A DNA stretch of 62,692 nt, counting the filler, from Rhabdomonas costata (Eukaryota), in assembly GCA_019059605.1 (NCBI GenBank). It is 44 parts of 44 records of this genome, joined end to end, with 100 filler letters (N's around TTAATTAATTAA, not from the genome) between each part and the next. Parts side by side here need not be neighbours in the genome. Positions count along the whole stretch, not along the records: positions 55,656 to 56,982 come from JAHMHO010019279.1; 43 more parts are not named here. One strand, 5' to 3'. The stretch's first letter is position 1; each line of letters begins with the position of its first letter. Below are positions 52,477 to 57,089 of this stretch, piece by piece. The position numbers were made by a program, and so were the translations under genes. The notes under the pieces are model-generated. The model saw nothing but the letters and a program-made list of their open reading frames with translations, did no database searches and had not been told where the DNA came from.

Positions 52477-54509
52477 TCGGTTCCGGCGATTGTTGTGTTT
52501 ACGAGGGGGTTATCTTGAAACAGAGCTCCATAGCGCCTGCGCTGCCTCATCACCTTGTTCAGTCCAACACTGCAGTTGTTTTTGTCGATATTGGGTCTGT
52601 CATAAAGCCAGCTGTGGTTCGACCAACGTTCAACAAAACTCCCAGCTCACTCCTACACAGCCTCGCTTAGACGCATTTAAGAAATTTCCTGCAAAAAAAC
52701 ANNNNNNNNNNNNNNNNNNNNNNNNNNNNNNNNNNNNNNNNNNNNTTAATTAATTAANNNNNNNNNNNNNNNNNNNNNNNNNNNNNNNNNNNNNNNNNNN
52801 NGGAAGCCGCAAGTCTCGCGCCAAAGCGCGGGCATCGAGAAAAGATCAAAGCCCACCACGGGGAGAACACACACAGAAGACGGAAAGACGAATCACTCCG
52901 GCACCTCATATGAATGCCCATCCGGCCGAAGCAGGTTTTCAGAGGGGCCGGAGAGACTGTTGCGCAACGCCCGGGAGCGCGTCCGGTGGAAGAACGCTGC
53001 CTGACTTTTTTTTCCACCTTTATGCTGCAACACCTTCGGTGTAATTCTTGTCTATTATTATTTGCTACCTTCGTGCGCATTGAGAGACTGAGAGAGTGGA
53101 TCTCTCAGTGCGCATCGTCACCGACATGATGATACCAATTCGATCATTATCAGCAGCCACAGCCTGAGATTATTAACGGGTGCAATCCATCTCAAAATTC
53201 GAAGAAAGCGAGCAATCACCTCAACAGCAACCAGCCAAAAAAGTTGAGGGACCGCATCGTGCGCGTCACTCTCCAAGACGGCAAAATTAACGGCAGGGAA
53301 GTGAAAACCAAACGAAAAGGAAAGAGGGAAGGCGAGGGGAGAGCCACCAGAAAGAATGCGGTGGAGGGAGGAGGGGTTGTCTCTGGTACGGCGCGGAGCC
53401 GCTTTTAGCGTAACGCCCCGCCGCGCACGGACAAAGCATGCAACAGCTACACAATTTTGACTCCAATTTCCTTTTTCACAATCCATGCAGAGAGGGCAGC
53501 GACAACGAGGACCACAAACAGTGCTTGGGAGAGCTCTAACTGAGGTGCTGGTAGTGGATGCCGGCAGGAGATCAGCGAAAGAGAGAAAAGGGAGGGGAGG
53601 TCACTGGACGTCAGTCCCCCAAAGAAGGAACTTGGAGAAGAGAGAATGCACGAGGGTAGAGCCCAATGAACGCATGAAAAGTGGAATCAAGCAAGGGCAG
53701 GACCTCGGTATCAAGAACATCTCAACCCTCCCTCCCTGCCTCCCTCCACAGGAGACCAGCACATGCTAAGGATGATAAAAGGACGTCGCATATACACACT
53801 CACAAACTCAATGGCGCGCGAAGTTGGAGAAGCAGTCCAGTCACCGCTGGGCGCGTGTACCCGCACCTCGCCGATGTGGGTGTCCGGTCAGGATTCTTTC
53901 GAATTCCAATATCGGTGCTTCGCAAAGACTCCGCAGTGGATCCCCAGCACACGAGGGGGCACATAGCCAGGGGAACCTCCTGAACAATGGCGGAATCATG
54001 GCTTGCCTCCTCGCGGTCTTGTTCGGAGAAGGACCCATGAACTCTATCTCAAACAGAGGCAGTGAGAGGAACAGAATGGAGATGAATGGGCACCCACACG
54101 CGGCCAACACAAGCACGATCCCACAACCNNNNNNNNNNNNNNNNNNNNNNNNNNNNNNNNNNNNNNNNNNNNTTAATTAATTAANNNNNNNNNNNNNNNN
54201 NNNNNNNNNNNNNNNNNNNNNNNNNNNNGGTTTTGGTGCGTCCGTCAGGAAAGTGGAGGTATTGAGTTGTGTGGGGTGACTGGTGGGTAGACTGGGCGGA
54301 TTTAACCCGCTTCCGCCCAAGTTAGCGGTGGGCACTTCTTCATTCCTGAGAGAGCCACCTTGCACCTGACGTGTGCTAGAGTCCTTTCTTGGCAGCCGCG
54401 GGTCCCTGTGCATGTGTCCGTCCTTTTTGTCTGGAGTGTGGGCGTTGTTCAGAATGCTAGTTTCGAGGGGTCGGGGTTTTCTTCTGAATACGGCGGTGTT
54501 GGTTTTCAG

Positions 54510-55082
54510 ATAAGGACGCTTAAGGAGGAAGGCAACAAGGCCTACCAGGCTGGGGACTACTCCACGGCGATTGCGCGGTACTCCAAGGCGCTCGAGCTGG
54601 ATCCCACACACCACGTTCTGCTGTGCAACCGCTCGGCGGGCAACCACAAACTGAAGGATTATGTGAATGCCCTGAAGGTGGATTCCTTTTGCCGAGGCCC
54701 TTGAATCCCCAGCTTGCGGTGCCTTCGGTGCTTCCCGTTCTTGAATTGTGGCCCAATACACAGTTCGCATGTTTCACGAAAGTTGTCAGACAACGGAACA
54801 AAGGGGCTAACCTAATGCTATCAGTACCAGTGGTGGCCTGCGCTGCGCGTTGTGCATGTGCACCAAATTTCGTTGGCTTTTGGGGAAGTATGTGCATGCT
54901 TGTAGGACGCTGAGCAGTGCGTGAAGCTGAAGTCCGACTATGCGAAGGGGTACTCACAAAAGGCGGCCGCACTGCTGAAGCTCGGGAAGAGGCAAGAGGC
55001 CATGCAGACGTACCGCATGGGCCTGAGTGTGGACCCAAACTGTGACTCAATGAAGTCTGCGCTCCAGAGACTCGAAGCTGGG
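54510..55082 (+). CDS. STI1/HOP TPR1-like co-chaperone domain, 2 exons
   Basis: Exons 54510-54677 and 54906-55082 give LKEEGNKAYQAGDYSTAIARYSKALELDPTHHVLLCNRSA..|DAEQCVKLKSDYAKGYSQKAAAL...GLSVDPN. Confidence 0.88.
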
Positions 55083-55796
55083 GTGCGCCCTTGCCACCTC
55101 TCTTCTTTCACCTCCTACCTGAAAAAGGATGTCTGGGGGCGTGCAGACATAAAGAACTACTGTCGCATTTTGCAGCATGTACAAGAGGGGAGTTTGAAAT
55201 TTTTGCCGACCCCCCCCCCCACACACACAAAGCAGGCGCAGACCAGCGGCGCGGTGGCCGAAGCGGGGTGGTGGTGGGGATTGATGCGTACTTGTGTCCG
55301 AACCATTTTTTGTTAGATTTCCATCATAACCATTGCTGCTTGTTGCCAAAAGAGTTTGTTAAGCGTTGCAAAACGTTGCAACCCCCCCCCCACACACACA
55401 CACAAGCGTTCTGTCCATCGGGGTTTCATTGGGTCTCAAAATGTGAGCCTGTCGTGTCTGTCGCCGTTAATGTGGTGCTTGAAGCTCTTGTGCGTTTGTC
55501 AGCAGAGCGCCATGCTGACCATATGCCACCCTCCAGCAAGTTCCTGCTGTTAAATNNNNNNNNNNNNNNNNNNNNNNNNNNNNNNNNNNNNNNNNNNNNT
55601 TAATTAATTAANNNNNNNNNNNNNNNNNNNNNNNNNNNNNNNNNNNNNNNNNNNNTGTGGTGGGTGTGGGTGGGTTTTTGGGTCAAAAAATAAAAATTTT
55701 TAGTATCATCATTAAGATATTAAAAATATATTTTTATACAGTTAGTTCAAATTTTATTTATTTCCATTGATCCAATAAAATTTTTAATAAGTCATT

Positions 55797-55827
55797 AAAT
55801 TTTTATTAAATATTTTAATAAAAATTT
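55797..55827 (-). terminator. Perfect AT-only palindrome (14-bp stem, 3-nt loop) abutting the stop codon; Mimivirus-type 3'-end hairpin candidate
   Basis: AAATTTTTATTAAA-TAT-TTTAATAAAAATTT lies immediately 3' of the TGA at 55830-55828. Confidence 0.6.
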
Positions 55828-56670
55828 TCAACATAAACATCTTGACCACAACATTTTATCATATTGTATTTTTGAACCATTTGATAAATATATCGTAAAA
55901 CCTAAATCATGTATTTTTTTGAATCGTTTTTTTATTTTATTTTTATATATAAAACAATCATCAAAAACACCATCAACATAAATTTTATTACAACATGCTG
56001 TTATTTTACAAGGATATAAACAAGTTGTTTTTTTCTCATGAATATTTTTTATAATTTCTGCACTATTTTTTAGTGAATAAAATGATACAACATGAACTGA
56101 ATTATTTTTTATACAATTGTAGATCAACGAATTACAACAAAAATCACATATGTTATTATGATGATTAAATTTAAAATCAATTTGTGTATAACAATATTTT
56201 ATTTTTACAATACAACGTATTATAAAAGTTGCATATGATCCGTTTTTTGTTATACTTATCCATTTTGGTTTAAATAAATTTTTTAAATATAATTCTATAA
56301 ATAACAATACATTGTTATTTGATTTATTTTTTACTAAATCTTTGTAAAATGTCTGTAATATACTATCTTGAGGAATAATCACATCAATATCATTAGGTAT
56401 TTTTTTCAATATTTTATCTCTCCAAAAACCACCGAAAATTTTAAAGTTATTATCTAGTAATAATGTTTCACAGATTTTCAATTCATTTAATTTATCTCTT
56501 CTTTGTTGTTTTGAAAGTAAATTCATAAACAATGCACTTTTTACAGATACACCAAAAACATACACATAAAATTTTGAATTTGTTTGAGTTAATGTTAAAA
56601 GTGAACGAACATCCAAATATTCAATTATTTCACCGACTAATTCATAAACCAATAAAAGTAAATTAACCAT
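55828..56670 (-). CDS. F-box + class II nucleotidyltransferase-fold protein (giant-virus-like), 280 aa
   Basis: F-box-like LLLLVYELVGEIIEYLDVRSLLTLTQTNSKFY, then IFGGFWRDKILKKIPNDIDV (GG..RD..DxD) and DFCCNSL (cf. DFTINAL). Intronless and very AT-rich. Confidence 0.8.
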   Translation of the reverse strand: MVNLLLLVYELVGEIIEYLDVRSLLTLTQTNSKFYVYVFGVSVKSALFMNLLSKQQRRDKLNELKICETLLLDNNFKIFGGFWRDKILKKIPNDIDVIIPQDSILQTFYKDLVKNKSNNNVLLFIELYLKNLFKPKWISITKNGSYATFIIRCIVKIKYCYTQIDFKFNHHNNICDFCCNSLIYNCIKNNSVHVVSFYSLKNSAEIIKNIHEKKTTCLYPCKITACCNKIYVDGVFDDCFIYKNKIKKRFKKIHDLGFTIYLSNGSKIQYDKMLWSRCLC

Positions 56671-56767
56671 TTAATGTATCAATATATGTAAATTCTTTTT
56701 ATCATTTATTGATGTATATCAATAATTAAATTTAATTATACAAGGAAAAATATCTTATTGTTTATAT

Positions 56768-56982
56768 ATGATTGAATGTGATAAATTTTATGCTTTTAGT
56801 GATATTGAAGGTTCTTTTGTATTTCGTGATATAGATACTAATGATAAAGTACGTGTTCTCGACAGATTATCTAGTATAGAAAAAAAATCTCCACCTAAAA
56901 TATTTAGTAATCATGGATTTGATAAATTATTAGAATTAAGTGATCTATCACATATTGGTGTTGAGTTAAGTTCTGAACTAAA
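56768..56982 (+). CDS. Divergent AT-rich ORF, possible metallophosphoesterase N-terminus (partial)
   Basis: MIECDKFYAFSDIEG resembles the first SD(I/L)(H/E)G motif. The ORF is truncated by the contig end. Confidence 0.5.
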
Positions 56983-57089
56983 NNNNNNNNNNNNNNNNNN
57001 NNNNNNNNNNNNNNNNNNNNNNNNNNTTAATTAATTAANNNNNNNNNNNNNNNNNNNNNNNNNNNNNNNNNNNNNNNNNNNNGTGGTTT

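Follow-up and report, generated by a model that had tools for sequence, protein, structure and literature searches.

Giant viruses, poxviruses and intracellular bacteria plug specificity modules into the Skp1-Cul1-F-box (SCF) ubiquitin ligase of their hosts by means of F-box proteins, according to the available text of two earlier reports (PMC10583209, PMC4209131). The adaptors described there, which include poxvirus ankyrin/F-box-like proteins, giant-virus repeat proteins and the Neochlamydia proteins NEX1 and NEX2, use repeats (ankyrin, leucine-rich or tetratricopeptide (TPR)) for specificity. NEX2 joins its F-box to a DUF294 putative nucleotidyltransferase (NTase) and a TPR region (PMC4209131, in the part available). 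Here we describe a gene at positions 55828–56670 of a 62,692-base stretch of DNA (hereafter, the window) from the genome assembly of the euglenid Rhabdomonas costata (GCA_019059605.1). Its predicted product, P0001, appears to share the plan of a pathogen F-box coupled to a specificity module, but its sole second module resembles the head of class II NTases (the CCA-adding and poly(A)-polymerase type), a family that differs from the DUF294 of NEX2. We tentatively read P0001 as a protein of two modules, encoded by a virus-like passenger, that would act through SCF docking. A literature search, with most subscription journals outside its coverage, returned no work that pairs an F-box domain with a CCA-adding enzyme, and two of the texts that it retrieved on F-box proteins, NTases and giant viruses describe no such fusion in a virus, as far as their available parts go. 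A preliminary description of the gene knew of no characterized protein with this architecture; partial precedents do exist, namely NEX2 and a giant-virus protein in which an NTase head is joined to a RING domain (see below).

The open reading frame (ORF) that encodes P0001 is a real gene. No stop-to-stop frame on the contig is longer, and none of 1000 shuffled versions of the contig reached its 280 codons (the longest open frame among them had 150). The remaining two sense frames contain 27 and 39 stops. The coordinates and the minus strand given in the preliminary description are correct.

The N-terminus of P0001 probably carries an F-box-like motif within residues 4–36. The Pfam F-box model matches residues 4–35 of the whole protein (profile positions 1–32 of 43; E 0.006, 16.9 bits), and searching the first 58 residues alone lifts it to 19.9 bits (E 7e-4). 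This is just under the cut-off of 20.5 bits, and we therefore name the segment F-box-like rather than F-box. The sister model F-box-like, from the same clan, matches the first 58 residues with E 0.0065 (16.7 bits against a cut-off of 24.3). These E-values are already corrected for the 24,736 models of the library. As a control for composition, the F-box model was run on six frames of four AT-rich viral records (1.32 Mb) and gave no match at E ≤ 0.01. Moreover, an F-box cluster ranked first in the ESM Atlas for residues 1–58 (score 0.81), at the level of a lead only. The motif lies at the extreme N-terminus, its usual place in true F-box proteins, and keeps the F-box hydrophobic pattern, with Leu-Val in place of the usual hallmark Leu-Pro. 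That the segment truly folds as an F-box and binds Skp1 is a serious possibility, although somewhat short of an even one.

C-terminal to this segment, P0001 contains the motif A of class II NTases, with the catalytic carboxylates intact (GG..RD, eight residues, DID). As in the class II enzymes (PF01743), the motif reads GG..RD-8-DxD, and the class II pattern (GG.[VILFW]RD, eight residues, D.D) falls on residues 80–96. Four independent libraries matched motif A at the same residues, each below its threshold. The Pfam PolyA_pol head matches with E 0.018 (15.8 bits) in the whole protein and E 0.011 (16.5 bits) in the C-terminal 222 residues; the Pfam family DUF6932, which true class II enzymes cross-match too, does so with E 0.021. 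Two PHROG families, annotated as nucleotidyltransferase and tRNA nucleotidyltransferase, match with E 0.018 and E 0.099, respectively. The PDB chain 9kma_A, from the polynucleotide adenylyltransferase family, matches with E 0.56 (E 0.12 with a two-sequence profile), and the tRNA nucleotidyltransferase of Bacillus phage G with E 0.5 in a tblastn search of 2.3 Gb (pairwise E 2e-7). We also aligned the heads of eight class II sequences (E. coli CCA and PcnB, phage G gp199 and five phage ORFs); hhalign placed residues 74–101 of P0001 on motif A of this alignment with P 2.4e-5. In IMG/VR, a scan for GG-[FY]-x-RD, eight residues and D-x-D (17 residues in all) in AT-rich codons returned 49 loci encoding 42 distinct proteins. 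Pfam was run on 33 of these, the nine others being near-duplicates or truncated copies. Twenty-six scored above the PolyA_pol cut-off, two were DUF5769 proteins with a weak PolyA_pol match, and five were unrelated (two portal-like, one methylase-like and two with no family).

Because motif A alone is short, we tested the rest of P0001 apart from it, aligning residues 105–280, together with its one relative, P0002, only to the class II columns C-terminal to the DxD. The best local match put DFCCNSL (residues 176–182) on the RRDFTINA motif B, in the correct order relative to motif A (score 17.9, hhalign P 0.051). None of 110 column shuffles scored as well (maximum 17.6), and with a 34-sequence profile the score was 18.2, equalled by one of 200 shuffles. 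The DFxCNSL segment singled out in the preliminary description thus aligns to class II motif B, and its core (D-F-x-x-N-x-L) has the class II order and spacing. Here we take motif B and EDxxR (motif D) to have the names and roles commonly given to them in class II enzymes. A permissive greedy alignment stays collinear beyond motif B. It places IIKNIHEKK on the G..D....IR turn and FDDCFIYKNKIKKRFKKIHDLGFTI on F.EDPLR..R..RF....LGF.I, an extension that is not significant alone. In class II enzymes the R..RF....LGF helix follows motif D; the alignment of KKRFKKIHDLGFTI to it is likewise not significant alone, and two giant-virus proteins of family DUF5769 (below) also align at this region. In size, P0001 resembles phage G gp199 (297 aa), a minimal class II form. 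It differs from class II NTases in its sub-cut-off scores, in lacking RR and EDxxR, in an inserted Cys cluster and in its N-terminal F-box-like motif. The cluster (C217/C221/C226/C227), which is kept in P0002, is a possible metal site. A match of P0001 to a scorpion-toxin chain (PDB 2kbk_A, E 1.6) was set aside as a chance match of Cys spacing.

P0001 has a single detectable relative. When 1.84 billion protein representatives were searched exhaustively with phmmer, only P0002 emerged (E 2.4e-12), a 146-aa protein from a 1225-base metagenome contig that forms a singleton cluster. P0002, which may be a fragment, is 41% identical to residues 124–231 of P0001, and the two share KNGSY, IDF, DF.CN.L and KKT.C.Y.C..T.CCNKI. 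A word-seeded protein search, at E ≤ 0.01 and E ≤ 10, found no relative of P0001 among 1168 candidates, and no locus was confirmed in searches of viral, metagenome and genome contigs with P0001 or its alignment. The viral, metagenome and prokaryote collections contained no match to a DNA pattern of the conserved Cys motif, and 185,579 prokaryote species, each represented by one genome, yielded no relative. The nearest neighbours in the ESM Atlas are three Nucleocytoviricota clusters (265–305 aa; scores 0.94, 0.94 and 0.93), a lead only, with 139–153 of 256 features in common with P0001, which is below the usual same-family level. Between 12 and 29% of the members of these clusters carry Pfam Gad2. 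Gad2 is a phage counter-defence protein against Gabija and a predicted nucleotidyltransferase, according to the available part of its description (bioRxiv 10.1101/2023.05.01.538930). P0001 has no Pfam match to Gad2 (PF26128) at E ≤ 10, and the literature search returned no work linking Gad2 with Nucleocytoviricota; a relation through the ESM Atlas neighbourhood alone is a lead only. Two further libraries added only a chance-level match in NCBIfam (12.6 bits) and none in PADLOC. All curated family thresholds are missed. P0001 fails membership of F-box (narrowly), PolyA_pol, DUF5769 and Gad2, and is assigned to none of them; the F-box and NTase resemblances are confirmed at the level of motifs, not of families.

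Two groups of giant-virus proteins are among the closest comparisons. The first is a 299-aa protein from a 17-kb contig of a giant-virus metagenome-assembled genome (L057:763-1659:-), in which a PolyA_pol head (25.5 bits; cut-off 23) is followed by a C-terminal RING domain (27.1 bits; cut-off 27), so that giant-virus DNA offers another instance of an NTase head fused to a ubiquitin-ligase module. Like P0001, it combines a short class II head with a ubiquitin module in AT-rich viral DNA, and its motif B lacks RR (NCDFTANNL). Unlike P0001, it ends in a RING, which would make it an E3 ligase itself, whereas an N-terminal F-box is an adaptor; outside the NTase motifs the two have no detectable similarity. 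The second group is a tandem pair of proteins of 325 and 431 aa (L026:1930-2904:- and L026:580-1872:-) in a 1.26-Mb giant-virus record of IMG/VR. Both match DUF5769 (PF19073) strongly (E 2.4e-19 and 9.5e-41) and PolyA_pol weakly (E 0.018 and 0.29), the former value being equal to that of P0001. Their motif A (GGF.RD-8-DID, residues 107–125) is roughly as far from the N-terminus as that of P0001 and lies behind an extension without Pfam domain. Collinear with P0001, their C-terminal parts contain KC-I, I-D-x-x-Y, D-F/L-x-x-N-x-L and I-x-x-N-C/I-x-x-K, and close with R-I-x-K-x-x-x-x-G-W/F. An alignment of six sequences (P0001, P0002, the DUF5769 pair, the RING protein and phage G gp199) shows D85, D96, I125, D165, D176, N180, L182 and N189 to be invariant. 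Of these, D165 is a candidate extra acidic residue whose catalytic equivalence is not established. The DUF5769 region, with motif A just upstream and D-F/L-x-x-N-x-L inside it, probably represents the rear portion of a divergent nucleotidyltransferase of class II-like type. A locus search for further DUF5769 proteins returned just the source record. A family search detected no others in four further large viral records, nor did the literature search find a mention of the family. Head-only class II NTases of 289–315 aa were also seen in two other AT-rich viral contigs (L010:1105-2049:+ and L043:1006-1872:-); they have a family-less N-terminal extension of 105–130 residues, a layout like that of P0001 without the F-box. 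A further viral protein of 758 aa (L034:211-2484:-, in a 31-kb IMG/VR contig) has an N-terminal GNAT acetyltransferase and a full CCA-type enzyme (head, RNA-binding and HD domains).

The DUF5769 pair raises an alternative, which we regard as doubtful: P0001 would be a DUF5769-like giant-virus protein with a real NTase-like core, acting alone or inactive, and its helical N-terminal extension of ∼75–110 residues would resemble an F-box without any SCF function. The paralogues' own layout, with motif A behind an extension and a C-part collinear with P0001, supports this, as do the F-box score under the Pfam cut-off, the loss of the hallmark Leu-Pro and the fact that no relative of P0001 has an F-box in common with it. 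However, the extensions of the pair, which contain no F-box, do not align with the F-box-like motif. Two models of one clan recognize that motif (E 7e-4 and 0.0065), F-box matches do not arise in the AT-rich viral DNA of the composition control, and the motif occupies the N-terminal position expected of a true F-box protein.

Forty-four unrelated contigs of 1307–1331 bases make up the window. They are ordered by length, with N44-TTAATTAATTAA-N44 linkers between them (e.g., 55556–55655 and 56983–57082), so that adjacency within the window has no biological meaning for the ORF. The P0001 contig (55656–56982) stands alone, with a length of 1327 bp and a GC content of 0.209, while the other 43 contigs range from 0.42 to 0.575, a gap of ∼30 points. 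The published account of the R. costata draft genome gives, in its available part, 51.6% GC and an N50 of 1194, eukaryote-affiliated transcripts whose GC never falls below 45%, and, as the source of the DNA, sorted cells amplified with a commercial whole-genome kit from a culture with uncharacterized bacteria (PMC8219788). A GC gap is also described, again in part of the source, for Bodo saltans virus, whose host is another euglenozoan (25.3% GC versus ∼50% in the host; PMC5871332). Directly after the stop codon of P0001, starting at the next base, lies a hairpin with a perfect 14-bp stem of A and T only and a 3-nt loop. Shuffling the contig never produced a stem of this length (300 mononucleotide and 300 Markov shuffles), and shuffling the 144-nt non-coding stretch did so once in 2000 trials; the RNA fold is modest (−7.7 kcal/mol, z −1.5) because the stem is all A-U. 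According to the available text on Mimiviridae, transcripts there end at hairpin-forming palindromes whose sequence is not conserved (PMC4402537), and the placement of our hairpin matches this type of punctuation. It is a candidate signal for the end of the transcript, in the manner of the Mimiviridae ‘hairpin rule’. The GC gap, the 97-bp spacer to the divergent neighbouring gene, the hairpin, the viral ESM neighbours and the want of relatives in the 185,579 prokaryote species together make an origin in a Mimiviridae-like giant virus the favoured one, by a modest degree. The like motif order of the giant-virus DUF5769 proteins also points to such a source. The ‘host’ named in the preliminary description needs correction, since the gene lies on an isolated contig that is unrelated to its neighbours in the window and is probably giant-virus DNA.

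Could the contig instead belong to an AT-rich bacterium living inside the protist's cells, with P0001 a secreted eukaryote-like effector analogous to NEX2? F-box–NTase effectors are known in amoeba symbionts (PMC4209131), and the culture held bacteria (PMC8219788), as far as the available texts of these sources go. Nonetheless, we consider a bacterial origin quite improbable. The prokaryote survey was empty, and the nearest ESM neighbours are viral rather than bacterial. The contig has no terminator-like site and fewer sigma-70-like sites (10) than its shuffles (mean 17.2), no Shine-Dalgarno-like sequence lies at the usual distance, and a hairpin abuts the stop codon. The NTase module is, moreover, class II-like and not DUF294 as in NEX2. 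A source in the nuclear DNA of an AT-rich eukaryote, through cross-contamination, or in a viral gene endogenized by the protist would suit the chiefly eukaryotic distribution of F-box proteins but is very unlikely, since no host junction is seen (the only GC-rich bases of the contig are its 28-nt G/T primer-like terminus), the gene has no intron, the divergent spacer is just 97 bp and no eukaryotic relative occurs among the 1.84 billion representatives.

Under the two-module reading, the contig would be stand-alone AT-rich DNA, likely of a Mimiviridae-like giant virus co-amplified with the protist cells. Residues 4–36 of P0001 would form an F-box-like helix bundle, and residues ∼75–260 a minimal, very divergent class II NTase head with a Cys-cluster insertion. 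By analogy with known viral and bacterial F-box proteins, the former may dock P0001 on the Skp1-Cul1 ligase of the infected cell. We conjecture that the NTase-like module provides specificity by binding an RNA 3′ end, or a host factor that carries RNA or a nucleotide, and that the bound partner would be brought to the ligase or kept beside it. P0001 would thus work most like a viral F-box adaptor, while its sequence looks most like the DUF5769-type NTase-like proteins of giant viruses. Since the metal-binding DxD is intact, the module may still transfer a nucleotide, but catalytic activity appears unlikely and canonical CCA or poly(A) activity is unlikely as well; the module may be a binding pseudoenzyme. 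About 205 residues only remain after the F-box, and P0001 has no Pfam match to PolyA_pol_RNAbd or tRNA_NucTran2_2, although most of the viral homologues carry these. With neither EDxxR nor RR, and with no neck or C-terminal tRNA domain detected, P0001 is not a CCA-adding enzyme. The preliminary description, which combined an F-box-like segment with a class II-like core lacking the CCA templating motif, holds at the level of motifs, and its interpretation is supported in part.

Several results weigh against the two-module reading. The F-box cut-off (PF00646 / PF12937; 20.5 bits) is missed by 0.6, and that of PolyA_pol (23 bits) is not reached by either P0001 search (15.8 and 16.5). At motif B, P0001 reads ICDFCCN where class II enzymes have RRD[FL]T[IM]N. 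It thus retains the Asp and the Asn but neither Arg, which makes canonical NTP handling doubtful. EDxxR is absent from P0001, as first noted from the sequence, the nearest segment being FDDCF at residues 236–240 (aligned stretch FDDCFIYK); the joint loss of RR and EDxxR argues against canonical NTP polymerization. AlphaFold2 models of P0001 give no evidence of a fold, with pLDDT (predicted local distance difference test) of 36.2 from the single sequence, 33.3 from a two-row alignment and 24–33 over residues 1–50. A survey of homologues for the same fusion did not bear it out: P0002, the sole relative, has neither F-box nor motif A, so that the fusion is seen once, and an F-box is absent from all 33 viral proteins scanned that share the motif A of P0001. 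The link between DUF5769 and P0001 is only suggestive: neither P0001 nor P0002 has a Pfam match to DUF5769 at E ≤ 10, and the alignment of their C-parts with those of the DUF5769 pair is weak (95 columns, score 19.0), with seven of 150 shuffles as good. As for the viral origin, the contig carries no giant-virus hallmark gene and nothing links it to any cell or virus genome. The early promoter AAAATTGA has no exact copy on the contig; 10 copies with one mismatch occur, none of them within the 97-bp spacer.

Unusual as the pairing in P0001 is, the matches behind it are weak and no known relative shares it; a single orphan gene on a 1.3-kb contig amounts, for now, to a lead and not yet to a result. 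If the reading is right, an enzyme-type specificity module would be added to the pathogen F-box adaptors, which have so far been repeat-based, and it would suggest that giant viruses link RNA-end chemistry to host ubiquitination, a direction in which the NTase-RING protein also points. The boldest version is that a euglenid giant virus makes an active, template-free NTase bolted to the host SCF by its F-box, coupling recognition or tailing of RNA 3′ ends with ubiquitin-dependent destruction, and that P0001, with DUF5769, founds a giant-virus NTase clade without RRD and EDxxR. We judge this to be highly speculative and improbable. An example would be the removal of an RNA-bound defence or translation factor of the host. 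Less ambitiously, the comparison offers a first functional handle on Pfam DUF5769, and the contig adds to the evidence for a Mimiviridae-like virus that travels with the euglenid culture. To our knowledge, no giant virus has been described from euglenids.

Table 1. Coordinates of features on the P0001 contig and of primer-like contig ends in the window (positions along the window; residues of P0001)
Feature	Positions	Strand	Residues, extent or basis
Intact ORF, protein P0001	55828..56670	-	280 codons; GC 0.21, GC3 0.11
F-box-like motif	56563..56661	-	Residues 4-36; Pfam F-box and F-box-like models
NTase motif A FGGFWRDKILKKIPNDIDVI	56377..56436	-	Residues 79-98, GG..RD-8-DID; Pfam, PHROGs, PDB, phage gene, hhalign
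TQIDFKFN strand	56164..56187	-	Residues 162-169; D165 invariant in six-sequence alignment
Motif B-like ICDFCCNSLIYNC	56113..56151	-	Residues 174-186; profile alignment to RRDFTINAL
IIKNIHEKKTTCLYPCKITACCNKI	55981..56055	-	Residues 206-230; Cys cluster C217/C221/C226/C227 kept in P0002
KKRFKKIHDLGFTI	55891..55932	-	Residues 247-260; permissive greedy alignment with R..RF....LGF helix
Hairpin	55797..55827	-	Perfect 14-bp A/T-only stem, 3-nt loop; starts at base after P0001 stop codon
Divergent intergenic spacer	56671..56767	.	97 bp, AT-rich, short inverted repeats
Second gene, divergent	56768..56982	+	First 71 codons, truncated by contig end
G/T-only contig terminus	55656..55683	+	28 nt; probable whole-genome-amplification primer remnant, outside the gene's genome
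G/T or C/A contig ends 1-5	7011-7035, 8436-8463, 8564-8589, 11421-11440, 24272-24287		
G/T or C/A contig ends 6-9	42687-42712, 42813-42834, 47094-47125, 55656-55683		

The second gene of the contig, read divergently from P0001, has no family match (Pfam, PHROGs, NCBIfam) and no relatives in the protein searches. Its start, MIECDKFYAFSDIEG, recalls what we take to be the first motif of metallophosphatases, D-x-H-G, with Glu replacing His, but without a profile match. The spacer between the two genes contains, at 56678–56739, the inverted repeats ATCAATATATG / CATTTATTGAT and a palindrome, ATAATTAAAT / ATTTAATTAT. Through these repeats, words of the ATTGAT type lie upstream of either gene; the repeats may act as a common promoter element.

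In nine of the window's 44 contigs, the 5′ start is G/T-only or the 3′ end C/A-only over 16–32 nt, exactly at the terminus. We considered the G/T-rich end of the P0001 contig as a host junction or telomere and rejected both, as like ends occur on the eight others. That the ends are always G/T at the 5′ side or C/A at the 3′ side fits untrimmed amplification primers, whose make-up in the kit presumably matches them. Such ends could be mistaken for telomeres, repeats or junctions. The neighbouring contig (54229–55555) contains two internal C/A runs, of 23 nt (55209–55231) and 27 nt (55379–55405). Its frames at 54360–55316 (plus strand) resemble, from the ORF list only, intron-split TPR exons of an STI1/Hop-type co-chaperone.

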